64,000 bases of DNA from a virus (taxonomy: Duplodnaviria; Caudoviricetes), in the IMG/VR virus record IMGVR_UViG_3300020190_000004; one strand, 5' to 3'. The translations under genes and the position numbers were made by a program. The notes under the pieces are model-generated. The model was not told the DNA's origin, did not search any database, and saw only the letters and a program-made list of their open reading frames with translations. Shown here one piece after another: positions 1-23,399 of this stretch. How positions within the stretch are numbered: the stretch's first letter is position 1; each line of letters opens with the position of its first letter.

Positions 1-2417
1 AGTATGTCACAGCAAGTTCCTGTTCCACTACTGCCGGTTGGCCCAGTAGGTCCAACCGCTCCAGTAAGTTCAAATACAATTATGTTAGACGAAAGCGGTG
101 TTCCGTAGTATAAACTATTAAAACCAGCGCTTGCGATTGGTATCAAGTTTGTTAACTTGACAGATATCAAATCACCAGTGTCGAGTTCTAAGGCAACCGA
201 AACATTTACCTGTGATTTAGGACCTGTGTAATTATCAACGCTGCTAGTAGGACCAAAGCTGTTGCTTTGTAAGGTATAGAACTTATGACCCAAAGGTGGG
301 TTAGATCCTGGCGTAATCAGGGTAATGTCATATTCATCATCGACGGAATCGTATGTTACGTGAAATAGAGTAGTAGGATCTATGAATCTGTTAGTGGTAG
401 CACTAACTATAAAAAACGGTACTCGTGATAGCGAATTCGTTCCGCATGACCAAGGTCCGTTTCCTATTAAGTCAACACTCTGGCCTTTGTGATTTTCAAG
501 TGTGTGAACTACACCATCTGTCAGCGGAAACATCGGCAGGTCATTAACCAAGAGTTCAGCTTTTAAGAAGCCTGCGTAGTTTAAGTTATATGTAATAAAG
601 TAAGTGCCTGTCGCCGGCACAGTGACATAATCATTCACACCAAGCCAAGAAAATCCGTTATTCACGCGAGGGTTTCGGTCCCACTGGACATTAGCAGTAG
701 CACCGGGCGGTAGTGGGTTGTGGTCCCATTCTCCACCTTCAGGTAAATAGGCTGGAATATCAATGACTCTTAGTGCTGATCCTGCGGGTCCAGTCGCTCC
801 AGTCACACCAGTGGGTCCAGTGGGTCCAGTGGGTCCAGTGGGTCCAGTGCGTCCAGTAGGGCCTGTAGCACCCGTGGGTCCTGTAGCACCCGTAGGGCCT
901 GTAGCACCCGTAGGGCCTGTAACTCCTTGAGAACCCGTGGGTCCCGTAGGTCCTGTAACACCTTGAGGGCCTGTAGCACCCGTGGGTCCAGTGGGTCCAG
1001 TGGGTCCAGTGGGTCCAGTACCTCCTGTTCCACCCGTAGCACCGATAGGACCTCCACCGAAACCGTAAATCCTTATGATATCTCCGTCTAAAATTGATTG
1101 CGCCAGGGAATAACTGTAGTGATTGCGTACTACCTGAAATAAAGTGTGATTAAATCTATCGATCAAGAATTGGTCTGATACATAAGAAATGTCAGCCTGG
1201 TAATAATCTACCTTATCTCTCCAATCTTTAATAAGATTTTGTGGACTATGGTTAGGTGCGTCAAAAGTTTGCCATGCATCGCTCCAACTCCACGGTCTTA
1301 ACTCGTGAGTAGAACTTGCAGATGTGTATGAAGGGGGAACGTAAACTAACCCCAAGAATAGTTTGTCATCGCTAAGAATAGGCCAAGGAGAATAGGTATC
1401 ATATATTAAATGATCAGCTACATCACCAATTGAAAATATGGTACTGCTGTTAGAAAGCGTAGCATTTTCACTAAGCGTAATTGTAGTCCCTGATATGTTT
1501 GTTACATAAGTTCCTAGCGGAATTCCGTTACCTATAACAATGTCTCCGGTAACGCCAGGCATTGGGTGTACATTGGTAATAGAGTTAACTCCTGCTACAG
1601 TATTACCAACAAAAGCATAAAGGGTTCCGTTAGTATATGCAACCGCAAAAGAGTTATCAACAGGACTTAAACTTAAAGTTGCTGGAGAAACATCAACTGT
1701 ATCAATTACCCCCGCACCAGTATAACCAATGGCTGAAGCAGTAACGCCAATCCCAAGCCCCGGTCCAATAATAATGTCGCCGATGTTAATTGTCCCTGTT
1801 CCTAAACCAGCCAAATTACTTACGTCAAGAATGGAGTTTCCAGCTGTTCCTGAAGCCATGAAAGTAGTAGCACGACCTGTGTTATACGGTATCCCTTGAA
1901 CAGCACCAATTGCTCCTAAGTATTCCGTGCCTGATGTCCCAGGTACCATCGCCGGTGGAGCGGGAGATGGGAATCCGCTTTCTAGATATACAATATCAAT
2001 CCGCGCTTTGTTTACGTAGGTGTTATCGACGATTTGTATGTCTCCGTTAATTAAGGCTTGTTCATGGTAATAGTTTCTTCCGTATATTCTACCAACACCT
2101 GTCTCAACTTGCACCCACGTTGCTGCTCCTACTGCTGCTACAACATTAGGCTTTTGTACCTTTAGGCCTGATAAAATTGAGGGTTCGGTATTAGGCTGAA
2201 TAATCTCAGCGCCGTCTTGTGTATAAAGTTTACCTTTATCAAAATCAACGATCTCTTCTCCACGATAAATGGTTCTACCGCCGAAGTCTGTAGGGTTATC
2301 AACGTGGTTTGTCCCAGGTATAGCGCTCTTTGGTCTAGGCCAAGATTCTGCGGTAGAATTAAAGTACTTGTTAATTCTACGAACAAACGATGTTATAAGG
2401 TTAGTTTTTCCAGCCAC
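1..2417 (-). CDS. Large collagen-repeat virion fibre/structural protein (partial, runs off the window start)
   Basis: Not in the ORF track. Manual translation from GTG at 2417 ([19 protein letters not shown]...) stays open to position 3. It contains beta-rich Gly/Thr segments, a (Gly-X-Thr)n block, a C1q/BclA-CTD-like beta domain and the start of a second GPTGPTG block at the window edge. Confidence 0.8.
781..1050 (-). repeat. Collagen-like (Gly-X-Thr)n coding repeat, 9-bp units such as CCAGTGGGT and CCTGTAGCA
   Basis: Tandem 9-bp units encoding GPT/GAT/GVT in the frame of the <1..2417 gene. Confidence 0.9.
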
Positions 2418-3474: not shown

Positions 3475-4415
<941 letters not shown>

Positions 4416-4419
<4 letters not shown>

Positions 4420-10732: not shown

Positions 10733-10936
10733 TTAGTACTCGTGTTCATCGAGTTCTTTGTTAGAACTCTTTATTCCAGGTGTAAAGTATCCTTTTTGTT
10801 TATTAAAAGCCGCTGAAAACATTTCCCAACCCTTGTCGTTAACAGGTGGTTGTACTACGTATTTAGGAGGCGTGTAGTCACTTGTCATCCCTTTTTCGAA
10901 TTTATCGAATTTAGGAGTCTTTTTCTTACTGCTCAT
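10733..10936 (-). CDS. Small hypothetical protein (likely start MSSKKK at 10936)
   Basis: ATG overlaps the 3' end of the upstream gene; the ORF track start at 10981 is probably too far upstream. Confidence 0.55.
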   Translation of the reverse strand: MSSKKKTPKFDKFEKGMTSDYTPPKYVVQPPVNDKGWEMFSAAFNKQKGYFTPGIKSSNKELDEHEY

Positions 10937-11225
10937 AATTCTTTCCTTCAGTTCTTTTCTGCTTTGCGATTTCAGAAGCACCTGCTAATTGCTTGCGCTT
11001 CTCTTTTAAGTTGTTTTTATCTACCTCAAGTTTAAGTAACTTAATGTCGATTTCTAAGATTTGAGCTTCAAAGTCTTGCTTGTTCTTTATGTGAGCTTTA
11101 CGTTGGTTAGTGAGGTCAGCAATCTGAGCAAGTAACTCAGCGTTGGCCCCGCTTGTGTCAGCATTCGCCTCTTCATTAGCCGAATACTTCATTTTCTCCC
11201 AGTCACTAAATCTTGTCATTTTCAT
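10926..11225 (-). CDS. Coiled-coil protein with capsid-targeting-like N-terminus (MKMTRFSDWEK...ANEE)
   Basis: Heptad-rich; GAATATATA late-like motif at 11230-11238. Confidence 0.6.
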   Translation of the reverse strand: MKMTRFSDWEKMKYSANEEANADTSGANAELLAQIADLTNQRKAHIKNKQDFEAQILEIDIKLLKLEVDKNNLKEKRKQLAGASEIAKQKRTEGKNYEQ

Positions 11226-14200
11226 ATTGTATATATTCATCTGCTAAACAGAAATCTACATCAATTATAGAGTAGTTAACTGCATAGTACTCGTGTTCAT
11301 CGAGAACAACTGCGTGTTCCCATTCAGTGCCAATTAACTCCTGAGCCATGACACCTATGAATCTTGTGTTGCTATCCCATACATATGTAAATTCATATAT
11401 GTTAATGCCTGACGGAGAAACGCCTATAAGTTTAATGTTATCTTTTAATCTTCTGTCAGATGTATTCATTACACCTGTAACGTTTAAATTTTGTACAGTT
11501 AAGTTAGAAAGCGCTGATTTAACGGCTTGTGCAATCGCGGTGGCGTCGCCGCCTCCGCCTCCGCCTCCGCCTCCGACAATTGAACCTGGGGTCGGGGAAG
11601 ATACAACGTTTTGTGCAGTGTTGCCTATAGCCCCTAATTTCTCTCCCAGGGTTTGCGTCAAATCCGCTCCAGGAATCTCCGGATCGCCCGCCTTATAGAT
11701 GCTAGCAGCAATATCACGCATAGCTTGTATTTTGGATTCAATAAGACTAAAGTCGGTGTTTGCGACTGTAACTACAGCGTCAGTCCAAATTTTGTAAGCA
11801 TTTATACCATCAGGTGTCATTACCATGAAGTTGTGACTGAATGTACCCATGTCTTTAGCAAATTGTGTAAACGCCTTTGTGAATCTTTCAAATGGTGTGA
11901 CCATGTTAGAAAGTCTTTGCATCTGATTGGTAAAGTGCCATAGGTTTTGCAGCGCAGGTATGTTCATGTCTCTTTTCATAGTCCTGCCAAGTATTGACAT
12001 ACTTACATCGAAGGAAAGTATTAGTTGATCCATCGGGATGTTTTTGTCCTTGGCCTTTTGAAATATATCAGTTGCTCTGTAATAAAGCAATGATGCCGTA
12101 ACGTTTTCTTGTAAACCAGGATTGATATAAGTGTGGAAATTCCACAAGGCGTCTTTCAACACACCTACACTTTTTGAAATAAGTTCAGCACCGGATATGT
12201 AACGTTTAACTGGCCATATGAAAGGAGAATTTCCAGCAAATTCTAGTCCATATACTTCAGGATATTTTGCACGAACTTTCATAATCACAGCGGTAGCTTC
12301 AGAATACAATTCAGTAGTTTCAATCAACAATTCAAATGTTGGGTTTATCGTATTATCAAGATGCCACATCATGTGGGTTAGTCCTTCATAGTTTGCGTGT
12401 GCCAAATGACCAGCTTCTGATAATGCGCCTGGAAAAAATGTTAAGATATCATACAAGTTAACTTTAGCGTCAGCAACCATGTCAGTGAAATTAATAACCT
12501 TTCCTGGCACCAATTTAGGATTTCCTTTCTTATCTTTAACAACCTCTTGTTGAACAAATTGCCCGCTTCCCATCTTGATGATTGCGTCAGCTAGTACGCC
12601 AATTGGTTCAGCTACTTCACCCATCGCTTCAATACCTGACTTAACATCGCCAAAGACTATACCAAAGAAACTACCGCCTCCTGCGTATGCTCTACCAAAA
12701 TCGCCAAGAGGGCCAGCTAAACCGTCTAAGATTTTTCCAATACCCGCTGCTGCCAGCTCAAAGTGCCCTTCGTTAAGAGTTATTACTTGGTCAGGAACAA
12801 CCTTTGCTTTGGGAGTTCCTGGGTTAATTACCTTTTGAGTAATCACTTGCATTTGTGCCATTTTGATAACACCTTCAGCAAGACCACCCAAAGATTCACT
12901 AAGGAGACCTAAACCTTCAAGTCCTTTTTCAACATACCCGCCAGAGAACCAACTGCTGCCTTCTTCCATAGCTTTACCAAAGTCTGTAAGAGGTGTGGCT
13001 ATCCAAGAAAGTATAGTTCCTACATTTGATCCAGCATTAGCAAAGTCGACCCAAGATAGTTTTCTTACGTAATCTGGAACTATCTTGGTTCCGCCTTTTC
13101 CGTCATCAATCACTTTATTTACAACGACTTCCAAGTTAGCCATTTTTACTATACCTTCAGCAAGACCTCCCAAAGATTCCGATAGAGTTCCAAGACCTTC
13201 AAGACCAATTCTCATATAGTCAGGACTAACCCAATCTGACCAGAAGTCCCACCAGCTACCTGATCCGCCTGTACCGCCTTCAAGTTGCTTACCAAAGTTA
13301 GTAAGTGGTTCTGTCAATGACACGATAAGAGCACCCACGTTCTTACCAGCCTGGGTCATCATGCCCTCCGTAACCTGTCTGATTTTGCCGGGTACTACCT
13401 TAGCGTCAGGTGTCCCTCTACCTACAATCGTTTGTTCAATGAATTCCATGTTGGCCATCTTGGCCATTCCTTCTGCAAGACTTCCCAAAGACCCAGATAA
13501 AGTGCCGATTCCTTCAAGACCTATTCTCATGTAGTCTTTGCTGACTAGGTCAGCAAAGAAGTCAAGCAACCCTCCGCCGCCTCCCGTCCCGCCTTCAAGT
13601 GCAATACCAAAGTCAGTTAGCGGAGAAGTCATACCAGCAAGAAGCGCTCCTACGCTTAATGCAGCTTGTTCCATCATTTGCGGCGTAACTTTCATTACTT
13701 TGCCGGGGACGAGTTTAGCGTCAGGTGTCCCTTTATTAACTATTTCTTGGGTTATGAACTCCATGTTGGCCATCTTGGCCATCCCTTCAGCAAGGCCTGT
13801 TAATGAGCCAGATAGAGTGCCTAAGCCTTCAAGACCGATCTGCATGTAATTAGGACTTATTGCATCTGCAAAAAAGGAAAAGAATCCGCCTCCGCCTGTT
13901 CCACCCTCAAGCTGAATACCAAAATTAGTAAGTGGTGCTGTTAGCGTAGAGAGAAGGGTGCCTATGTTAGTAGCAGCAGCTTTGAAATCGCTTTCCTGGA
14001 GCTTTGTCACTTTATCAGGCACGATCATTGCCTCCTTAGTACCCTTGTTAATCACTTTGTTTTGAGTGACTTCAAGATTAGCCATCCCCTGAATACCGGT
14101 AGCAAGCGTTGTTAAAGATTCTGTTAAAATGCCAAAGTATTCAACTCCAGTAGCAATGTACCCGTCACTAAACCAACCGCTTCCTTCATCAAGAGCTTTT

Positions 14201-17200
14201 CCGAAGTCCATAAGAGGCGATGTAATGTTACTAAGTATAGCACCTATGTTTGTAGCAGAAGCTGTAAAGTGCCCTTCATTTAATTTAATGACTTTTCCAG
14301 GTACGATCATTGCGTCCTTAGTGCCCTTGTTAATCACTTCGTTTTCAATGACTTCAAGACTAGCCATCTGCTGAACACCTTTAGCAAGAGTAACCATACT
14401 ACTCGAAAGCTTGCCAAACATATCTAAACCCATTTCAATGTAGCCATCGCTAAACCAACTACTTCCTTCGTCAACAGCTTTACCGAATTCCATAAGGGGC
14501 GAAGTGATTGCGCTAAGAATAGCATTTATGTTTTTGGCAGCTGCTGAAAAGTCAGACTTATCGAGTTTTCTAACATCACCCATGACAAGTTTAGCGTCCT
14601 TAGTGCCCGGGTTAATTACAACGTTAGTCATTACTTCCAGGTTAGCCATCTTAGCTACACCCTCAGCAAGAACTACCATAGAGTCGCTAAGTTTAGGCAT
14701 CATTTCAAGACCGGATTCAATGTAACCTGCTGTAAACCAACCACTGCCTTCGTCAACAGCTTTACCAAATTCCATTAGAGGGTCTGTTAAGCTGGTGAGA
14801 ATTAACTTGATGTTTTTACTAGCTTCTTTAAAGTCAGACTTATCAAGTTTTCTAACTTCGCCCATCACAAGTTTAGCTTTATCTGTCCCAGGGTTGATTA
14901 CAACGTTGGTCATTACTTCCAGGTTAGCCATCTTAGCTACACCTTCAGCAAGCGTAGCAATAGAGTCCGCCATAATAGGCATCATCTCAAGACCCTTCTG
15001 CATAATGCCTTTTGTAAACCAACTACTACCAACTGAAGCAGCCATACCAAACTCCATTAAAGGGCCTGTTAATGTAGTAATCATTAACTTGATGTTATTG
15101 GCAGCGTCTTTAAAGTCGCTTTTCTTGAGTTTACGAGTTTCTCCTAAAACAAGTTGAGCTTTATCTGTTCCAGGATTAGCTACCACCATTGAGGTAACTT
15201 CAAGATTGGCAATCTTAGCAACAGCCTCCGCTAATGTTGTTATTGCATAGCTTGCGGTTGCCATTGCTATAGAACCGTACATAATAAGATATGCTGAAAT
15301 AGGATTGCCCATGATAGCAAAGCCTTCAAGTATTGCGTAAGCCAATGAAGTTATCATATCTCCCATCAGCTGACCAGTTTTCTTATCATACTTGACTTGA
15401 TTAAATACCGCGACTGCTCCTGTTAAAGCAATTATCCCCGCTGATGCAAAAACCAAAGACGTACCACCAAGAATCACAAAAAGAGCTATCAAAGGAAAGC
15501 CCAAAGAAGCTACCGAAAGACCTAATACAGAAATAGAGTCAGCGAGAGCATGTATGTTATCCATGTTTATTCCAGGTAACGAACCAATTACTGCAACCAC
15601 GCCAGCAAATACCATTAAAGGTATAGCTGCCGTTTCGAGAGCAATGGATCCAATAATAACAAGGGCAGCTAAAAGAGGTATACCAAATATCGCGAATGCG
15701 CCGGCTAGCAGTATGATGGATCCAGCAAGTGCTGCTGCGCCAGCGATTACTCTCGGCGCGTCGAGGAAAGAATAGATAGCAAGAACGGCAGAAAATATCA
15801 TTAAAGGGAAACTTGCCTTGCCAAGAGTAAAAGACCCTAAATGTATCGCTGCAGCAATAACAGGAATACCCGCAAGAGCAAATGCACCACCTAATAGTAC
15901 AATACTAATGGCAAGCGCACCAGCTCCCAAAATTATCTGCGGTGCGAAGAAACCAGCAACCAGAGCAGCAGCGCCAATTAGCATGGTAGGGTTTACCATC
16001 TTTTGAACCGCTTGAGCACCAAAGTCAATCCAGACCGCAACCTGTCCCGCAAGCGCAAAAGCACCGGAAAGAAGAGCTATTGCTACCGAAATTACTACAC
16101 CGCCCAAAAGAACTTTCATCGGAAATAGCCCTGCGATAAGTAATGCAACAGTGAGACTCAGGATAGGTTTAGTCATACTGTTAATAGCAGTTGCTGCCAG
16201 CGTTATTTCAGGGAATAAAGCGGCGGTTGCTCCCATCACGAGTAAAAGAACCCCCATCGCTAATATGAAGGTAAGCGCACCGATAGCGAACGTTTTAGCA
16301 AATAAACCTATAAGTACGAATGTTAAACCTAACCTAAATGCAACACCTGCAATTATGCTGATTGCTTCAGCGGCAGTGAGCACTGCGGGAAATAGCTTGG
16401 CTACTGCTCCAAATATAAGGAGCATAGCTCCTACTGTTAAAGCAAATACCAAGGCACCTATAGCAAACTGTTTAGCAAAAAATCCTATCAGAATGAATGT
16501 TAAAGTTAAACGGAACGCAGTACCAGCTATTGCAGCAATACCAGCAGTGGCTATTGCAAGCTGAGGCACTGCCATTGCAACCAATCCAAATATAAGAAGC
16601 ATGGCAGCAACAACGATTGCAAAAACCAATGCACCTTTCGCAAAAGGGACCATGAGTAGCGATATGATAGTCATTCCCAATGCAAACATAATAGCACTGC
16701 CACCTATACCTACAAGCTCTGCTACTGCAGCTACATTAGTGACCGCAGACGCAGCTAGCAAACTAAATAGTGATAACATGGCAAATACTACAACAGAGAA
16801 TACCAATGCGCCTAAAGCAGCCATTGGTGCTAAAAATAACCACGCAGCCATAGCAAGACCGAATAGCGCTGCCCCTCCGGCTACGCCCATAAGTTCTACA
16901 ACAGCGGCCATGTTTGTTGTGGCGTTCATAAGAACCCCTGATAAAATACGCAGAGTCATCGCAACTGTTGCCCCAAAACCAGCAGCACCCGCCATAGATA
17001 AAGGTGTCAAGACAGACATCGCAGCCATGTCTTTCATAAACGTGCCTGCGTTACCAAGGATAGCGTTCATAAGATCAGCTGTTGCTTGCATCTTCTCAGT
17101 ATCCATTTCCTTGGTGGCTTCATCTAATGCAGTTACGATATCGTTGATAACGATTGCAACATTAGACCCTAAACTCTTATCTATAGATTCTGCCTCGGAA

Positions 17201-17427
17201 AGTGCTTTAATAAGTTCTGCCAAGGCTTTTGCTGATGAAGCAATATCACCCGCATCGATTTTTTCTCCCTTTTTTTCTTCCTTGCCTTTGTCATCATCCT
17301 TGCCATCCTTGCCACCTTTGCCACCTGTATTCTTTTCAATTTTTTCAAGAATCGCGTTGATAGGTGCACCTGGGCCTAAAAGCTTATTGAGTTGTTGACC
17401 TATATACTGTGCATCTGCATTCGCCAT
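11206..17427 (-). CDS. Tail tape measure protein with C-terminal peptidase S74 (intramolecular chaperone) domain
   Basis: 2073 aa, directly downstream of tube/gp26/gp51-like genes; Ala/Gly-rich helical hydrophobic repeats; ends GGGGGGGG...NT-SDRRLKDNI...YEFTY...FIGVMAQEL...YAVNYS. Confidence 0.8.
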   Translation of the reverse strand: MANADAQYIGQQLNKLLGPGAPINAILEKIEKNTGGKGGKDGKDDDKGKEEKKGEKIDAGDIASSAKALAELIKALSEAESIDKSLGSNVAIVINDIVTALDEATKEMDTEKMQATADLMNAILGNAGTFMKDMAAMSVLTPLSMAGAAGFGATVAMTLRILSGVLMNATTNMAAVVELMGVAGGAALFGLAMAAWLFLAPMAALGALVFSVVVFAMLSLFSLLAASAVTNVAAVAELVGIGGSAIMFALGMTIISLLMVPFAKGALVFAIVVAAMLLIFGLVAMAVPQLAIATAGIAAIAGTAFRLTLTFILIGFFAKQFAIGALVFALTVGAMLLIFGAVAKLFPAVLTAAEAISIIAGVAFRLGLTFVLIGLFAKTFAIGALTFILAMGVLLLVMGATAALFPEITLAATAINSMTKPILSLTVALLIAGLFPMKVLLGGVVISVAIALLSGAFALAGQVAVWIDFGAQAVQKMVNPTMLIGAAALVAGFFAPQIILGAGALAISIVLLGGAFALAGIPVIAAAIHLGSFTLGKASFPLMIFSAVLAIYSFLDAPRVIAGAAALAGSIILLAGAFAIFGIPLLAALVIIGSIALETAAIPLMVFAGVVAVIGSLPGINMDNIHALADSISVLGLSVASLGFPLIALFVILGGTSLVFASAGIIALTGAVAVFNQVKYDKKTGQLMGDMITSLAYAILEGFAIMGNPISAYLIMYGSIAMATASYAITTLAEAVAKIANLEVTSMVVANPGTDKAQLVLGETRKLKKSDFKDAANNIKLMITTLTGPLMEFGMAASVGSSWFTKGIMQKGLEMMPIMADSIATLAEGVAKMANLEVMTNVVINPGTDKAKLVMGEVRKLDKSDFKEASKNIKLILTSLTDPLMEFGKAVDEGSGWFTAGYIESGLEMMPKLSDSMVVLAEGVAKMANLEVMTNVVINPGTKDAKLVMGDVRKLDKSDFSAAAKNINAILSAITSPLMEFGKAVDEGSSWFSDGYIEMGLDMFGKLSSSMVTLAKGVQQMASLEVIENEVINKGTKDAMIVPGKVIKLNEGHFTASATNIGAILSNITSPLMDFGKALDEGSGWFSDGYIATGVEYFGILTESLTTLATGIQGMANLEVTQNKVINKGTKEAMIVPDKVTKLQESDFKAAATNIGTLLSTLTAPLTNFGIQLEGGTGGGGFFSFFADAISPNYMQIGLEGLGTLSGSLTGLAEGMAKMANMEFITQEIVNKGTPDAKLVPGKVMKVTPQMMEQAALSVGALLAGMTSPLTDFGIALEGGTGGGGGLLDFFADLVSKDYMRIGLEGIGTLSGSLGSLAEGMAKMANMEFIEQTIVGRGTPDAKVVPGKIRQVTEGMMTQAGKNVGALIVSLTEPLTNFGKQLEGGTGGSGSWWDFWSDWVSPDYMRIGLEGLGTLSESLGGLAEGIVKMANLEVVVNKVIDDGKGGTKIVPDYVRKLSWVDFANAGSNVGTILSWIATPLTDFGKAMEEGSSWFSGGYVEKGLEGLGLLSESLGGLAEGVIKMAQMQVITQKVINPGTPKAKVVPDQVITLNEGHFELAAAGIGKILDGLAGPLGDFGRAYAGGGSFFGIVFGDVKSGIEAMGEVAEPIGVLADAIIKMGSGQFVQQEVVKDKKGNPKLVPGKVINFTDMVADAKVNLYDILTFFPGALSEAGHLAHANYEGLTHMMWHLDNTINPTFELLIETTELYSEATAVIMKVRAKYPEVYGLEFAGNSPFIWPVKRYISGAELISKSVGVLKDALWNFHTYINPGLQENVTASLLYYRATDIFQKAKDKNIPMDQLILSFDVSMSILGRTMKRDMNIPALQNLWHFTNQMQRLSNMVTPFERFTKAFTQFAKDMGTFSHNFMVMTPDGINAYKIWTDAVVTVANTDFSLIESKIQAMRDIAASIYKAGDPEIPGADLTQTLGEKLGAIGNTAQNVVSSPTPGSIVGGGGGGGGGDATAIAQAVKSALSNLTVQNLNVTGVMNTSDRRLKDNIKLIGVSPSGINIYEFTYVWDSNTRFIGVMAQELIGTEWEHAVVLDEHEYYAVNYSIIDVDFCLADEYIQYENDKI
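12450..15270 (-). repeat. About 10 tandem 94-105-aa repeats in the tape measure protein
   Basis: Recurring LAEGVAKMANLEV..VINPGT.DAKLV.G.V.KL...F...A.NI..IL..LT.PL.EFG.A..EGS.WF; nucleotide-level copies 282 nt apart (14629 vs 14911) and 315 nt apart (13447 vs 13762). Confidence 0.85.
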
Positions 17428-17454
17428 CTATGGGTTTGTCTATTGTGATTTTTG

Positions 17455-17462
17455 TATATATC
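17455..17462 (-). promoter_or_regulatory. Putative late promoter GATATATA (tape measure gene)
   Basis: Exact motif directly after a terminator hairpin. Confidence 0.6.
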
Positions 17463-17494
17463 AAAAGACCCGAGACACAACGGTCTCGGGTCTT
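17463..17494 (-). terminator. Rho-independent terminator
   Basis: 12-bp perfect stem AAGACCCGAGAC/GTCTCGGGTCTT, 6-nt loop, short T run. Confidence 0.7.
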
Positions 17495-17512
17495 AGGCGA
17501 AAGTCTATATTT

Positions 17513-17848
17513 TTAGAAAAACTTCGGCATACTCGGCATACTCGGCATACTCGGCATACTTGGCATTTTAAAGCTTCCGGGGTTAAAGCTTGATGATTGC
17601 GCCCATGAAGGTAAACCTTGGTTAGCGTTTCTCATCATATCAGCAGCTCCGCGTCTAGCATCATCCATGCCGCTAGTGGATTGCTGTTCTTTTTCCTGTT
17701 GCTTTCTGGATTCATTTTCCCTTTCGTTCCAATTCTTAAGGTTGTCCATCAGCATTTCTGCTCTCCAAAATTCGAAGCGATCAAGCTCAGACGGTTGAAG
17801 ACGAAGAATTTTAAGCATGAGGAACTCAACCTCAAACCAATTCTCCAA
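17513..17848 (-). CDS. T4 gp51-like baseplate hub/tail assembly protein (possible TTG start at 17848, or a frameshift extension of the upstream gene)
   Basis: SLENWFEVEFLMLKILRLQPSELDRFEFWRAEMLMDNLKNWNEREN resembles small gp51-like proteins that follow gp26 in T4-like cyanomyoviruses. Confidence 0.55.
   Translation of the reverse strand: MENWFEVEFLMLKILRLQPSELDRFEFWRAEMLMDNLKNWNERENESRKQQEKEQQSTSGMDDARRGAADMMRNANQGLPSWAQSSSFNPGSFKMPSMPSMPSMPSMPKFF
17524..17559. repeat. 9-bp tandem repeat x4 (TCGGCATAC) encoding (MPS)n
   Basis: Visible tandem repeat at the 3' end of the gp51-like gene. Confidence 0.85.
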
Positions 17849-18845
17849 AGATATCTGAAATAAGGAAAATAGACTTGACTCCTGACTGAAAGTTAAGCGG
17901 AGCAGTGGCCTCCGTCCCACTCATTGAACGATAGCGAACTTGCGGTTTAACCGAAGATGCTAGCATGTCAACTAATTTATCCATAACGGAGATCTTTTGC
18001 AATGACCATGTATACGATTCTTGCACAGCTTTATCATACACATTCTGATTAACACTTTTCCAATCCGGAAAAAGAAAAGGTGCGTACTTAACGAAAGATT
18101 TATCAAAGTTTGTACCGCTTTGTTGACGTTGCTTTAAGTAATTCTTGATGAATAGCATTGTTCCAAGAGACGGTAAATACATTTTGAAATTTTCACCGTT
18201 TTTCATACGAATATCAAAGCAACGATCGTTGTTATCAAAGTAATTCATTAATCTCTCATCTGCATTAAAGTAATCAATAACATCTTTAGTTACTTCTACT
18301 CTTTCTTCAAGACCTTCATCATTAGTAACAGTTACAAACATTTTATTTTCACCGTTCTTAAATGTATAGTCACGAATAGCAAAGATTAGATAGAAACGGT
18401 CAATTTCCTTTAGATCTTTGTATGTACCGGGTTTACCAGGCACTTTAATGCGAGCACACTTATCAACAATAAAGTTAAGCATGTCATCAACACCTAATAA
18501 GTCATTTTCGTCTATCGTTGACCAGTGGCGTATCTCAGCAACTGATGCAGAACGAATAGCAACTTGTGTCCCCGGTTCGTAAAACATACCCCCTGATGGT
18601 AGGTTTTCTAATGGAACAGTTTTCCAACCAAGCTCATTAGCAATTGGATCTTCTTCCTCATAAATTTTGAACTTCTCTGCTTTACCAAGTGAAGTTGGTT
18701 GTGCAATCAGAACGGGATCTTCTGCAACAGTTTCAACTTCAACTTTTTTAGCAGCAGCGGCAGCAGCAGCTTCTTCTTGCTGGGCAAGTAATTTGGCTTC
18801 TCGTTCAATCTGCTCTTTAAAGTCGTTGTTTTGTTCTTCTGACAT
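17832..18845 (-). CDS. T4 gp26-like baseplate hub assembly/tail chaperone protein
   Basis: LPSGGMFY...VAIRSASVAE...DLKEIDRFYLIFAIRDYTF pattern; located between tube and tape measure genes. Confidence 0.65.
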   Translation of the reverse strand: MSEEQNNDFKEQIEREAKLLAQQEEAAAAAAAKKVEVETVAEDPVLIAQPTSLGKAEKFKIYEEEDPIANELGWKTVPLENLPSGGMFYEPGTQVAIRSASVAEIRHWSTIDENDLLGVDDMLNFIVDKCARIKVPGKPGTYKDLKEIDRFYLIFAIRDYTFKNGENKMFVTVTNDEGLEERVEVTKDVIDYFNADERLMNYFDNNDRCFDIRMKNGENFKMYLPSLGTMLFIKNYLKQRQQSGTNFDKSFVKYAPFLFPDWKSVNQNVYDKAVQESYTWSLQKISVMDKLVDMLASSVKPQVRYRSMSGTEATAPLNFQSGVKSIFLISDIFGELV

Positions 18846-18958: not shown

Positions 18959-19516
18959 TTAGAGAATTGTCTCTTCCCAGTAATCACAACGTAATGTGAA
19001 TCCGGTGATTTTGTAGATATCGTTACTACCAAAATCTGTTTCAATAGGAGTGATAGGCGATGTTGGGAAACATATCGGGAACTTAATCTGACGGAAGATA
19101 TCACCATTCTTGTTAAAGTAGTTGATGATCATCGGTCCTCCAGTGTAGTCCTTTTTCAATCCCATTCTTCCTGTAAGTGGATCATAGATAAGATCACACC
19201 ATTTACGAAGTGCTTTGTAGCAATACATTGAGTTTGCATCGTCAAGGTTGACTTCGAAATCAAGTTGTACATCGCAAGTAGTTGCATCTACCATACCACC
19301 AGCAAACGAACGTTTAGCTGATTTGTATTTTTGTTCAACAACTGCCGGTGAACGGTTAACATCAACTCCACCAACTTTAAGAACGTTTTCCATTACTAGA
19401 GTCCAGCCTGTAACAGCAGCAGGAGGCTGTAGTGTAACCTCAAACTGTGCCAAGTACACCGGCTCGTACTGAGCCATGGCGGCTTTGGAATTTCTATAGT
19501 GCGGTAATCCTGCCAT
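18959..19516 (-). CDS. gp19: Tail tube protein (T4 gp19-like)
   Basis: 185 aa after the sheath gene; ALRKWCDLIYDPLTGRMGLKKDY, final CDYWEE. Confidence 0.85.
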   Translation of the reverse strand: MAGLPHYRNSKAAMAQYEPVYLAQFEVTLQPPAAVTGWTLVMENVLKVGGVDVNRSPAVVEQKYKSAKRSFAGGMVDATTCDVQLDFEVNLDDANSMYCYKALRKWCDLIYDPLTGRMGLKKDYTGGPMIINYFNKNGDIFRQIKFPICFPTSPITPIETDFGSNDIYKITGFTLRCDYWEETIL

Positions 19517-19559: not shown

Positions 19560-22500
19560 TTATACTGCAGCAAATCCGCCTGAAGCGATTGCACCAGTCT
19601 TAAGAACTGTAATACGGTTAACGAATTTCTGTAGCCCTCTCGTTGGCTCGATTCCGATGTCAATGATACCAAAGTTTTGGTCAATGATTTCGTTAGTGTT
19701 ATTGGTATCGTCCATAATAACCGAGAATGCTTGAATACCTCCAGCGTTTCTTACAACATCAAGATATGTTTCAATGATTGTGCGTATTTCAAGACGTGTA
19801 GCAGCATCGTTAAACTCAAACAAGTAGTTTTGTAAGATTTCAATAACACCTTCTTCAACTGTAATAAGCAAGTCACGAACATGTAAGTTGTTGAATGCTG
19901 ATAAAGTTCTTTGGTAAGCAGTCTGGTTAGCGAAGATCATTGGACCAACGTTGCGAACAACTACGATGGGGTTAAGACCTGCTGGTTCGAGATATTCACG
20001 GTCCTTCAACAAGAAGTCATATTCAAGTCCTACGAATTTAGGGTCAGAAATAACACCTCTTCTTGGACCAGCGACGATAGCATAAGGGGTTCCGTTCACG
20101 AATTTAGCAACGAAGTTGTTAGAAACGTGAGCAGCAGGTGGGATACTGATGTTCTTACCGTTTTCTCTAAGGATAACGTTAGGTGTGAAGACCCCAATAA
20201 ATTTAGCACCGTTCTCTTCATCAGGTAAACCCCAAGTATAACTTGGACCAAGGCTTAAGTTACCACCTGTAGAAATGTACTCGGTGTTAAGCACTGGTTT
20301 AGGGTTTCCTGAAGCAGCGTCAGGTAATTCAGTGAATCGCGGGTCAGTGCTTGCTTGGAATTCAGCCATAGAAGGGGCGTTCAATAAAGCTAGACACTGT
20401 TGACGATTCTTAGCTAATCGACTCAAGTATTGTTTTGGGCCCATTCCTGGCTCAAGACCACCATTGAATGTGTCAATGATGTAACGGAATTGAATCACGT
20501 CTCTTGAAGCAAGAGTTTCACCAATGTTTGTAGTCTCAAGAACACTAAGTATTTTTTCAAGTTGAGCAGGAGTACCAGGTATATGATAATCTGTCATCTT
20601 AAACCCAGATAACTGAGTGAATTGGAAACGATCAGCAAATTTCTGAATCGGTGTAAACTTAGTAATATAAGAAATACCCGAAGTAGTTGTAGTACCAGGT
20701 ACTTCAATTACAGTATATTCAAAATAAGGAGATCCTGTAGCAGGATCTAATTTCTTAACTTTAGAAGTAACTCTTGTAAGTTTAGGAGAAACGATGTCAT
20801 TATTCACAACGAAATCTCCAACTTCTAGATTAACAGAATTTGTTTGGCTAAGTTTGAATTTCTTACCGCCGCCGTAAAGTCCTGGGGTTTCAATCGCAAT
20901 GTTCGACTGAATGTTTTTAGCCAACGAAGAATATGCAGCAAATACATTTTCACCAAGAGCAGCAGGTAACTGAATTGTTGTATCGATGTAAGTGTTATCA
21001 AGAGTAGCAAAGTTTGTAGTAGGGTTTTGTAAAGCTGTATCAGCGAACTGGCGAACGATTGTTCCTGGTAAGCCGTAAGCAACTTTTGAGTACTGATTGA
21101 TATTTTTACCCCAAATAGAATCTACGTTTAAGTAGTTGTATTGTGAAGCACCAGAACCGTACTTAACACGATCTCCGTCAACTAAAAGGTTTCCGTTAAT
21201 GTTTTTAGACAATTTTGAACCAGGATAAGACTCGATGTACGAAATAGTTGCAATGTTAGAACCTGTTAATGTAGGATCAACACCGACAACAGCAGCTGGG
21301 TCAGCGAATCCTGTAAATTGTTGACCACCGGGAAGTGTTATGATTACTTGTGCAGCAGCAGCAACACCTAATACAGTAAATGCGTTTAGACCAGCAGCAG
21401 TAAGAATGTTGACTCCACCATAAGTAGGGGATGATAAAACTAAATCGTAAGCATCGGTAGTAGCAAAAGTACCGTAGATATGAGCTGTACCGTAAACAGT
21501 TCCAGATGATGCGTCGGTAATTGTTACATTATTTTCTGCTGCGGCATTAGTAGTTTGTCCTAAACCTTCAACGTTTGCGATAGTAGAAGCACATTCAGCA
21601 ATGTAACCAAAAGTATTACCGAAACCTTGTTGCAGGTTAGGAATCAAATCTTGAGCACCTACCTCTGTTGTAGCCCAAACTGTTACTCTAAGAGCACTAG
21701 GCTGTTGGTAAGCAGCGAATTCATCAGCAGCAAAACCGGCTACACACCATTTGTTTAACCAAAGAGGCCCGCCAACTGTTAATGAAGTGTTTACGATGAT
21801 TCGGTCTACACCAGGAGAAAAGGATGGTATGTAAGAAGCAATTTCAAAGTACTTTGTATACCCAGGAGCTTCAACCAAGATCACATCTCCGACTGTGATA
21901 ACAGGAGTAAGGTTACTAAAGCTTTTTATGTCGATAGTGTTAGCTAAGGTAGGAACTGCTGCAGCAACAGTTTCTTCGATGTAATCACTTTCAGGACCAG
22001 TTCCGTAAAGAGCGCTGTAGTAATCTTTATCTTGACGAACAGGGTTTGACAAGTAAATCAACAAGTCGGTTCCTGTGTCAACAATGTTACTTACTTTAAC
22101 GTAGTCATTAGGAGTATCACTGTCGTTAATTGTTAAAGCACCGTTAGATAAAACAAGAGATCTTGTGTTTAGTACAGAAGCAATATAGTCCCACTGTGAA
22201 GGTGTGAAGATGATGTCACTTGGAATAGGTCGAGGTAATACAAGAACGTTTCCAAATTTACCAGCAGCACCGCCTGTAGCAACAGAGCGTATGTATGGTT
22301 CAACAGATCCTGTAAGAGGGCCAAATGATTGTAGAGTCGTTTGTGATAAAAGGTTGTCATCTTTACCGGTGAAGGAAAGAACCGACTTTATAGGAGTGTT
22401 GTATGACAAGAAGTCAAGAATATCGTCAGTAGTGTTAATCAAAGTATTACCAATCATATCAACCTTGTAAGTTGAATTGGCGTAATCTTCTAGAACGTCT

Positions 22501-23399
22501 TGGTTGATGTTTAGGAATAAACCAGTTGTAGCAACTTGTTGATTAACGATTACATCGATAGATTGATTACTTCCGTTGTTATCAAGGAAGTCAGGTATAA
22601 TGCAACCTGTAAATGAACCTGTTAATGTAATTCCATCAAGGGACAAGAATGAGTTAAGACGATCAGCGCGTAGACCACGTAAGTCAAAGAACTTGCTGTA
22701 AAGAGGATCTTTTGCAAGTAGAGGCAAGTTAGTCCAGTCGCCGCGTACAATGAATACGTCTACGAAATAATCAGACATAAAGTCAGACTTGTAAACGAAT
22801 GTTGGTATTTCATCAGCACCAAAATAGTCTTGAGCAGTAACATTGTACTGACTAGCATTTGTTGATTTTCTGATGATTACGCTTTGCGCTTGTTGACCAA
22901 GGTTTACTACGTTAAACAATCTACCGCGGTTAGCTGGTTTGCTATCCACAGTTGCTTGTAGGTAATCTGTGTCTGGATAGAAGAATCTTTCTTTGTTGTA
23001 GAAAGAAGCGTAGAGTGCTCTAGTAATGTCACCGTTGTTTTCATTTGCCGCAAGTGCAAATGATCGATAATCTACTGCGTCTCCACCTTCATTAACTGGG
23101 ACATTGTTTAGTGGTAAGAGGTTTAATGCGAAGATTGGACCTGTTCCGAGTGAAGTTTCAATTGCACGATGGAAGAAAGATCCACGAGCTTCAAGTGAAG
23201 AGTCTATTGTACCGAAAACTCTTCTTGCTGTGCGAATATCCCGCAAAAACACCGGAGAGTTAAAAGGGCCAATTCGTGAAAACCCAACGACCAAGCGGAT
23301 TGTCTGAGTTGATACAACGATAAACTCAGAAGCATCGAACTCGATTGTGTATATTCCAGATGCTTTGAATCTGTTAAGATCAAGAGTGATTTTAGCCAT
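19560..23399 (-). CDS. gp18: Tail sheath protein (T4 gp18-like), enlarged
   Basis: N-terminal VGFSRIGPFNSPVFL; C-terminal ANQTAYQRTLSAFNNLHVRDLL...YLFEFNDAATR...DDTNNTNEIIDQN...IEPTRG. Confidence 0.9.
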   Translation of the reverse strand: MAKITLDLNRFKASGIYTIEFDASEFIVVSTQTIRLVVGFSRIGPFNSPVFLRDIRTARRVFGTIDSSLEARGSFFHRAIETSLGTGPIFALNLLPLNNVPVNEGGDAVDYRSFALAANENNGDITRALYASFYNKERFFYPDTDYLQATVDSKPANRGRLFNVVNLGQQAQSVIIRKSTNASQYNVTAQDYFGADEIPTFVYKSDFMSDYFVDVFIVRGDWTNLPLLAKDPLYSKFFDLRGLRADRLNSFLSLDGITLTGSFTGCIIPDFLDNNGSNQSIDVIVNQQVATTGLFLNINQDVLEDYANSTYKVDMIGNTLINTTDDILDFLSYNTPIKSVLSFTGKDDNLLSQTTLQSFGPLTGSVEPYIRSVATGGAAGKFGNVLVLPRPIPSDIIFTPSQWDYIASVLNTRSLVLSNGALTINDSDTPNDYVKVSNIVDTGTDLLIYLSNPVRQDKDYYSALYGTGPESDYIEETVAAAVPTLANTIDIKSFSNLTPVITVGDVILVEAPGYTKYFEIASYIPSFSPGVDRIIVNTSLTVGGPLWLNKWCVAGFAADEFAAYQQPSALRVTVWATTEVGAQDLIPNLQQGFGNTFGYIAECASTIANVEGLGQTTNAAAENNVTITDASSGTVYGTAHIYGTFATTDAYDLVLSSPTYGGVNILTAAGLNAFTVLGVAAAAQVIITLPGGQQFTGFADPAAVVGVDPTLTGSNIATISYIESYPGSKLSKNINGNLLVDGDRVKYGSGASQYNYLNVDSIWGKNINQYSKVAYGLPGTIVRQFADTALQNPTTNFATLDNTYIDTTIQLPAALGENVFAAYSSLAKNIQSNIAIETPGLYGGGKKFKLSQTNSVNLEVGDFVVNNDIVSPKLTRVTSKVKKLDPATGSPYFEYTVIEVPGTTTTSGISYITKFTPIQKFADRFQFTQLSGFKMTDYHIPGTPAQLEKILSVLETTNIGETLASRDVIQFRYIIDTFNGGLEPGMGPKQYLSRLAKNRQQCLALLNAPSMAEFQASTDPRFTELPDAASGNPKPVLNTEYISTGGNLSLGPSYTWGLPDEENGAKFIGVFTPNVILRENGKNISIPPAAHVSNNFVAKFVNGTPYAIVAGPRRGVISDPKFVGLEYDFLLKDREYLEPAGLNPIVVVRNVGPMIFANQTAYQRTLSAFNNLHVRDLLITVEEGVIEILQNYLFEFNDAATRLEIRTIIETYLDVVRNAGGIQAFSVIMDDTNNTNEIIDQNFGIIDIGIEPTRGLQKFVNRITVLKTGAIASGGFAAV

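Follow-up and report, generated by a model that had tools for sequence, protein, structure and literature searches.

To our knowledge, cleavage of a tape measure protein has so far been shown for phages lambda and T5 only. Here we describe a gene in a 64,000-nucleotide stretch of viral DNA (IMG/VR record IMGVR_UViG_3300020190_000004; the whole of this stretch is referred to as the window), which encodes P0001, a tape-measure-like protein of 2073 residues that ends in a Peptidase_S74 (S74) intramolecular chaperone domain; together with the ends of S74-less relatives, this fusion points to built-in maturation of a probable tape measure protein. In lambda and T5, tail assembly includes a cut of the tape measure protein close to its C-terminal end (PMC10038345, PMC12617516). 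The cut in lambda gpH lies in a Gly-rich C-terminal region, and its catalyst is stated to be unknown (PMC12617516), whereas the first-pass annotation of the window had attributed lambda-type processing to "another activity". In T5, lambda and 80alpha, among others, the C-terminal parts of tape measure proteins form trimers in the hub (PMC10038345, PMC12617516); a trimeric end is already the norm, and the trimeric tape measure which that annotation had put forward as a further implication adds nothing new. Nor is S74 a domain of receptor-binding proteins only, as the same annotation had it, since it has been reported on spikes, fibres, neck appendages, MyRF and tail-associated lysins (Tal) (PMC12403621, PMC10194240). 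A literature search, with most subscription journals outside its reach, gave no report of S74 on a tape measure. The module is therefore a known one, on a type of carrier not previously described in the literature searched.

P0001 is encoded by a minus-strand open reading frame (ORF) with a stop-free translation, and has the following parts:

11206..17427, minus strand: gene for the 2073-residue tape-measure-like protein P0001, stop codon included (translation and synteny)
17041..17427, minus strand: N-terminal charged region rich in Lys, Glu and Asp, residues 1-129 (translation and family consensus)
15208..17040, minus strand: very hydrophobic region, residues ~130-740, with ~21 membrane-helix-like segments that are themselves repetitive
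12307..15300, minus strand: ten tandem repeats of 94-105 residues each, residues ~710-1707, with the motif LAEGVAKMANLEV in each
11596..12306, minus strand: non-repeated region, residues 1708-1944, conserved in the family (PFEKF..F...K.MG.F) and predicted to be helical (secondary structure from a low-confidence model)
11548..11574, minus strand: poly-Gly linker of nine glycines, G1952-G1960, encoded by a (GGAGGC)n repeat
11461..11547, minus strand: conserved tail of 29 residues, D1961-T1989, DATAIAQAVKSALSNLTVQNLNVTGVMNT, the predicted mature C-terminus (from the ends of S74-less orthologues)
11458..11460, minus strand: codon of Ser1990, the predicted nucleophile, with the predicted cut at Thr1989/Ser1990 (T/S....K layout shared with K1F endosialidase)
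11443..11445, minus strand: codon of Lys1995, the predicted general base of the Ser-Lys dyad (Ser +5; invariant in homologues)
11209..11460, minus strand: Peptidase_S74 intramolecular chaperone domain, residues 1990-2073, the 84-residue predicted released piece

An AF2 model of residues 1400-1989 is mostly helical, with a pLDDT of 42.7 that makes it usable for coarse secondary structure only. The hydrophobic region (15208-17040, minus strand) consists of repeated units of about 60 residues (..FAK.FAIGALVF.L.VGAMLLIFG.VA...P...AG.AFRL.LTF.LIG.FAK..), so that both halves of the protein could change length in steps.

The C-terminal domain can be assigned to the Peptidase_S74 family by its profile score, its catalytic dyad and its position at the extreme C-terminus of the carrier (residues 1990-2073 of 2073). 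With the Pfam profile PF13884 (Peptidase_S74), residues 1900-2073 score 25.0 bits against a cut-off of 22 (E 2.3e-5; match over residues 1990-2032), and the whole of P0001 scores 17.7 bits, which is under that cut-off. The same C-terminal stretch is matched by phrog_6121 (E 1.3e-12) and likewise by six tail-fibre PHROGs. The domain starts with S1990-D-R-R-L-K1995 and continues with YEFTY, FIGVMAQEL and YAVNYS; across 16 aligned homologous ends no variation is seen at S1990, D1991, R1993 or K1995, nor at the G, A and Q of GVMAQE. The first-pass annotation had read an S74 chaperone at this place, with the poly-Gly linker, T-S-D-R-R-L-K, the Ser codon at 11458-11460, Lys at +5 and the three downstream motifs. 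Translation confirms every one of these elements, and the profile scan of the C-terminal fragment, the PHROG matches and the invariant residues bear out the family assignment.

The C-terminus of K1F endosialidase, taken from the phage record, reads ...PIVT/SNGERK...FGVIAQQ (the slash marks the cut), and has the same T/S-x4-K arrangement followed 35-45 residues on by GVIAQ. BLASTP and hhalign comparisons with this C-terminus were not significant, and only GV(I/M)AQ aligned. Sequence searches of the PDB, with the single sequence and with a profile, gave no S74 structure at E<=1. In a monomer AlphaFold model the S74 core has a pLDDT above 90; a Foldseek search with this model gave nothing significant, with S74 structures at noise level. 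A homotrimer prediction for three copies of residues 1958-2073 scored 0.11 against a mark of 0.32, and counts neither for nor against the assignment. With a tblastn search of the S74 end against phages, only structural proteins of Brucella, Microcystis and Rhizobium phages were found, none of them annotated as a tape measure.

The sole S74 motif of the window is the C-terminus of P0001. The two tail-fibre genes of the window, both collagen-like with GPTGxT repeats (3475-4419 and 3-2417, minus strand), have no S74 end; here it is the tape-measure-like protein, rather than a fibre, that has the chaperone. The closest S74 ends from cultured phages (44% identity) are held by podovirus proteins of 392 residues, which belong to phrog_6121/phrog_4287 and are annotated as "virion structural protein" or "DNA ejection protein"; the locus of one such end is 17428-17634 in Brucella phage Tb (H19). 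S74 may therefore occur on further virion proteins that are not fibres.

Word-indexed searches placed P0001 in a family that counts more than 45 phage proteins of 1082-3159 residues, each with 12-30 membrane-helix-like segments followed by repeats of about 100 residues; none of these proteins has been named. S74 is carried by P0001, P0002, P0019-P0021, P0053 and a huge-phage clade (P0003-P0015), and is absent from most other members, including close relatives at the same locus. The close orthologues without S74 (P0022-P0028 and others) end with an ..NLxVxxLxVTG.. motif, at the predicted cut site or at most about four residues from it: P0001 reads ...SNLTVQNLNVTGVMNT/SDRRLK, and S74-less proteins stop at ...SNLTVTNLTVTGKFQS, ...NLQVNTIKADRIIQG or ...NITVENLKVTGKFEGGR. 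The predicted mature product of the carriers thus shares its C-terminal motif and its end with the natural product of the non-carriers. Such a shared end is what one expects of a self-removing, transient helper, and the ends of the S74-less orthologues strongly suggest that the 84 residues are released.

A maximum-likelihood tree of the core, built without the S74 columns and without the carrier P0053, places the S74 carriers in two separate, well-supported groups, one of which is nested among non-carriers. This implies at least two gains or losses of S74. In addition, among the best 150 of the 9428 proteins matched at E<=0.001 by a profile built from S74 ends (in a representative library of 1.84 billion proteins), twelve further clusters at 50% identity could be identified (1034-2777 residues) that combine 11-25 membrane-helix-like segments with a C-terminal SDxRxK motif. 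The search for further fusions of this kind, which the first-pass annotation had proposed, thus yielded additional carriers within the family and at least 12 further clusters, and the two clades together with the twelve clusters indicate that the fusion is recurrent and conserved and not a one-off.

Sequence variation was also seen ahead of the predicted cut site. In two of the four lake metagenome runs compared (X4 and X6), several substitutions fall in the codons for residues 1980-1988 (11465-11488), just before the cut, and run X4 also has a net in-frame deletion of 3 nt in these codons. The SDRRLK codons showed no difference in any of the four runs.

The tape-measure reading is supported by gene position, by length variation at a fixed locus, by PHROG matches in relatives, and by the ratio of tail length to protein length in two cultured relatives. 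Every gene in the window lies on the minus strand, and the order in the direction of transcription is the large terminase gene (TerL), tail sheath, tail tube, a 337-residue ORF, an overlapping small ORF and then the P0001 gene. Close relatives have the same order (TerL, sheath, tube, an ORF of ~335 residues, an ORF of ~95 residues, the big gene, an ORF of ~103 residues, and further on guanylate kinase). In these relatives the big gene at the same locus encodes 1179, 1390, 1446 or 2423 residues, and the number of repeats, ten in P0001, varies among orthologues at this locus. Family members P0040 (E 1.1e-7) and P0049 (E 0.0019) are matched by phrog_4372 ("tail length tape measure protein"), and P0059 by phrog_3779 (E 0.0021). 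When the whole 213-kb genome of Chryseobacterium phage MA9V-1 was searched with phrog_4372, the single match was to the orthologue ORF9 (E 9e-9), and T4_Tape_measure and PhageMin_Tail had no match in that genome. The region of orthologue P0018 that is matched by phrog_4372 corresponds to the hydrophobic region of P0001. In Flavobacterium phage MaF61 a weak match to phrog_4372 (E 5e-4; L010, 96725-97072, minus strand) was found in an open frame of 928 residues, far from the sheath gene; this frame may be the tape measure of MaF61.

The classical ruler value is about 0.15 nm of tail per residue. The orthologues of MA9V-1 and MA9V-2, of 1082 residues each, correspond to 0.157 and 0.153 nm per residue, with measured tails of about 170 and 166 nm, as given by transmission electron microscopy (TEM) (PMC10537231, PMC13414440). 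Ten other ORFs of the window, of 420-618 residues, were scanned as competitors, and were assigned to portal, replication or nucleotide metabolism or had no match; none of the ten matched a tape-measure family. Taken on these grounds, the first-pass reading of the protein as a tape measure is supported, and we consider it probable that the P0001 family represents tail tape measure proteins. That P0001 itself is the S74-matured tail tape measure of an uncultured freshwater jumbo myophage of about 238 kb appears fairly likely to us, and it is probably also an ejected, channel-forming protein.

We propose the following course of events. The last 84 residues would act as a Peptidase_S74 intramolecular chaperone that gathers three chains at their C-termini, the end found in the trimeric baseplate hub of solved tails. 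The short conserved NLxVxxLxVTG tail (residues 1961-1989) would then fold, after which the Ser1990/Lys1995 dyad would cut between Thr1989 and Ser1990, and the S74 piece would probably leave. The mature protein of 1989 residues, placed in the tail lumen, would match the orthologues made without S74 in its C-terminal motif and end, and at 0.15-0.157 nm per residue would set a tail length of about 300-310 nm. Later it may be ejected, with its many hydrophobic helices, as a conduit across the envelope, as has been proposed for other tape measure proteins. Generalized to the family, this would mean that in a group of jumbo- and megaphage tape measures the trimeric hub-proximal end is nucleated by an S74 chaperone that can be detached and cleaves itself, and that its removal then leaves the end motif of the S74-less relatives; in our judgement this general scheme stands evenly in the balance.

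Several observations weigh against the reading of P0001 as an S74-matured tape measure. On the S74 side, VIA-align of the monomer model with known S74 structures gave Z-scores of 2.6 for 7dc3_A (20% identity) and 2.2 for 3gud_B, which are not significant; such a weak match of a monomer is unsurprising, since the S74 domain folds as an intertwined trimer. On the tape-measure side, neither Pfam nor PHROGs gave a tape-measure family match for P0001 itself. Pfam searches with four segments of P0001 and with 29 family members gave S74 only and no tape-measure family, and the T4 gp29-type profile PF25671 had no match in P0001, in the 29 family members or in the MA9V-1 and MaF61 genomes; ESM Atlas gave a weak lead to PF25671 (0.86). 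By sequence, we do not file P0001 under T4 gp29 or place it in a described tape-measure family, and a megablast search of the region against 50,697 phage records gave no match. The PHROG matches of the relatives fall in hydrophobic, compositionally biased regions, and phrog_4372 also has matches in 8 of 14 control genomes. The ratio of tail length to residues comes from TEM figures of two phages that are close relatives, and the tail length is also roughly compatible with another protein of MA9V-1, with 1276 residues. The homologue of the huge-phage clade (L001, L002) does not adjoin recognizable sheath or tube genes. Finally, the competitor scan covered ten ORFs of the 64-kb window, out of a genome of ~238 kb of which ~174 kb lies elsewhere.

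Some of these points would fit a different role, in which S74 is real and self-cleaving and P0001 is another virion protein, either an ejected membrane-channel or pilot protein or a membrane-anchored structural protein, with the ruler encoded elsewhere in the 238-kb genome. Besides the missing family match, the separate location in the huge-phage clade and the confinement of the competitor scan to the window, this would be in line with the ~21 membrane-helix-like segments over 600 residues, far above the number in classical tape measure proteins, and with the 392-residue podovirus proteins of phrog_4287 and phrog_6121 mentioned above, annotated in part as "DNA ejection", which also end in S74. 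We nevertheless regard such a role as unlikely, in view of the conserved position after sheath, tube and a chaperone-like pair, the changes in length through repeat number at a fixed locus, the orthologue being the sole phrog_4372 match in MA9V-1, and the 0.153-0.157 nm per residue in both cultured relatives. Moreover, tape measure proteins are thought to be ejected and to form channels (PMC12617516), so that "channel protein" and "tape measure" are compatible descriptions.

Another alternative accepts P0001 as a tape measure and differs from the proposed maturation in the fate of S74, which would be kept, either uncut as a trimerizing cap, or cut and retained as an 84-residue trimer that plugs the hub in the manner of lambda gpHC and T5 pb2C. 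The cleaved C-terminal fragments of lambda gpH and T5 pb2 indeed remain in the tip complex as trimers (PMC12617516, PMC10038345), and it has been suggested that the S74-like chaperones of the Tal of Oenococcus phage X27 might be retained (PMC12403621). Against this, the invariant Ser, Asp, Arg and Lys of the catalytic motif argue for activity, and the orthologues that end at or near the cut site do without such a piece, as would be expected of a transient helper rather than of a structural plug. In the characterized spikes and fibres the domain is released, according to the part of the literature summarized in PMC12403621 (citing Schwarzer 2007 and Schulz 2010). Retention of S74 on the mature tape measure is accordingly, in our estimate, a distinctly unlikely outcome.

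That the fusion is an assembly artefact, with an S74 fibre fragment joined to the big gene at the poly-Gly repeat, is highly improbable. It is true that in each of the four runs the Logan contigs stop within the (GGAGGC)n repeat (11535-11582), with no contig bridging it. Yet the S74-bearing contig also contains the conserved family tail (residues 1961-1989) and the downstream genes known from synteny, the ends of the two contigs overlap in repeat sequence, and the depths on the two sides co-vary over the four runs (34.6/25.9, 18.7/13.9, 12/11.1 and 6.6/6.0). In addition, P0002, P0019, P0020 and P0021, which come from other assemblies, are laid out collinearly with P0001 although their linkers differ, and at least 12 more clusters share the architecture. 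The break at the repeat is for these reasons not a sign of a chimera, which the first-pass annotation had named as an outcome that would overturn its reading and which the contig and depth evidence and the collinear homologues in independent assemblies exclude. More than 20 metagenome runs from lake water contain the stretch.

The genes that surround P0001 are as follows:

19560..23399, minus strand: tail sheath, 1279 residues, upstream; most similar to the sheaths of Lak megaphages and of a Flavobacterium phage
18959..19516, minus strand: tail tube, 185 residues, upstream
17513..18845, minus strand: 337-residue ORF with an overlapping ORF of ~100-135 residues, a conserved pair directly upstream of the P0001 gene (synteny in relatives)
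10926..11240, minus strand: conserved Lys/Glu-rich ORF of 104 residues, which overlaps the end of the P0001 gene by 35 nt and has a counterpart of 101-110 residues in relatives with and without S74

Further downstream of P0001 are small ORFs and genes for guanylate kinase, dCMP deaminase, a sigma factor and the collagen-like fibres. The sheath is unusually large; ordinary sheath families match its last ~340 residues only, and the remainder is common to Lak megaphages and other huge phages. The upstream ORF pair stays with the big gene, also in MA9V-1 and MA9V-2, even where other genes have been inserted on one side of the pair, towards the sheath and tube genes or towards the big gene. One such insertion is a glycoside hydrolase family 16 gene (L003, 5806-7887), which in MA9V-1 lies between the chaperone-like pair and ORF9 and is not found at that position in MA9V-2; according to the paper on the phage, this gene is 80% identical to a Chryseobacterium protein. 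The two ORFs of the pair may be chaperones of the big protein.

The smaller ORF of the pair overlaps the 337-residue ORF in the +1 frame (17513-18845 in the window; 9050-9500 in L005; 9480-10010 in L006). An ATG at ~17817 is replaced by Phe or Leu codons in two relatives, and upstream of this site the downstream-frame sequence ..SLFSLFQISLENWFEVEF.. is still conserved. The small ORF would start either at a TTG inside the overlap, which is present in the window and in L005, or through a programmed +1/-2 frameshift, and either way the arrangement resembles the chaperone pair that precedes tape-measure genes. A programmed frameshift was considered as additional support for the tape-measure reading and set aside, the conserved TTG start being an alternative. 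Four MPS repeats (PSMPSMPSMPSMP), each corresponding to a tandem unit of 9 nt, close the small ORF (17530-17575, minus strand); its counterpart in L006 has a similar end, MPSMPSMPNM.

If our reading holds, P0001 would be the first tape measure protein known to carry its maturation protease within the chain. Tape-measure maturation could then be studied in a tractable case, on a chain that brings along a well-understood Ser-Lys autoprotease, with a bearing on the question of lambda gpH cleavage (PMC12617516). Beyond beta-helical fibres, spikes and Tal proteins, the range of S74 would take in a central tail protein that is helical and membrane-active. The presence at one locus of orthologues with and without S74 would provide a natural control for the contribution of the chaperone to the folding and docking of the tape-measure end. 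A function can also be proposed for a family whose more than 45 members, from jumbo and megaphages of lakes and other habitats and including those of MA9V-1 and MA9V-2, are all at present "hypothetical". Moreover, an unusually long tail of about 300 nm is predicted for the phage that carries P0001.

Compared with established S74 systems, i.e. K1F endosialidase, the L-shaped fibre protein pb1 of T5, the neck appendage of GA-1 (PDB 3GUD) and eukaryotic MyRF (PDB 7DC3), P0001 has the domain at the same extreme C-terminal position, with the T/S-x4-K spacing, the GxxAQE motif 35-45 residues downstream and a PF13884 match over the cut-off on the fragment. By analogy, the expected role is also the same, i.e. 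to trimerize the upstream segment and then cut itself off. In contrast, its cargo of about 2000 residues, with ~21 membrane-helix-like segments and helical repeats in a tape-measure position, is not a beta-helical spike or fibre; only the short NLxVxxLxVTG segment precedes the cut, the K1F comparison is not significant, and the fold matches to 7dc3 and 3gud are weak.

The placement of an add-on module at the distal end of a central tail protein is shared with the enterococcal Tal architecture DA5 and the Tal of Oenococcus phage X27, which have S74-like chaperones, and with the metallopeptidase of T5 pb2 (PMC10194240, PMC12403621). The Tal proteins that carry S74 have beta-helix or beta-prism stalks, however, and are not tape measures. 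Closest in family and locus is ORF9 of MA9V-1 and MA9V-2 (1082 residues, annotated as hypothetical), which has the same module after sheath and tube; unlike P0001 it has no S74 and only two to three repeats, and it ends about 30 residues past the low-complexity linker.

Finally, the predicted C-terminal cut of P0001 resembles the conversion of lambda gpH to gpH* and gpHC and of T5 pb2 to pb2* and pb2C, with a Gly-rich region as in lambda and a C-terminal part that would be trimeric in the hub as in both phages. Unlike in lambda and T5, the protease of P0001 would be part of the chain itself, and whereas the C-terminal fragment of these phages stays in the tip, the piece released from P0001 is probably dispensable, because its orthologues end at or near the cut site.

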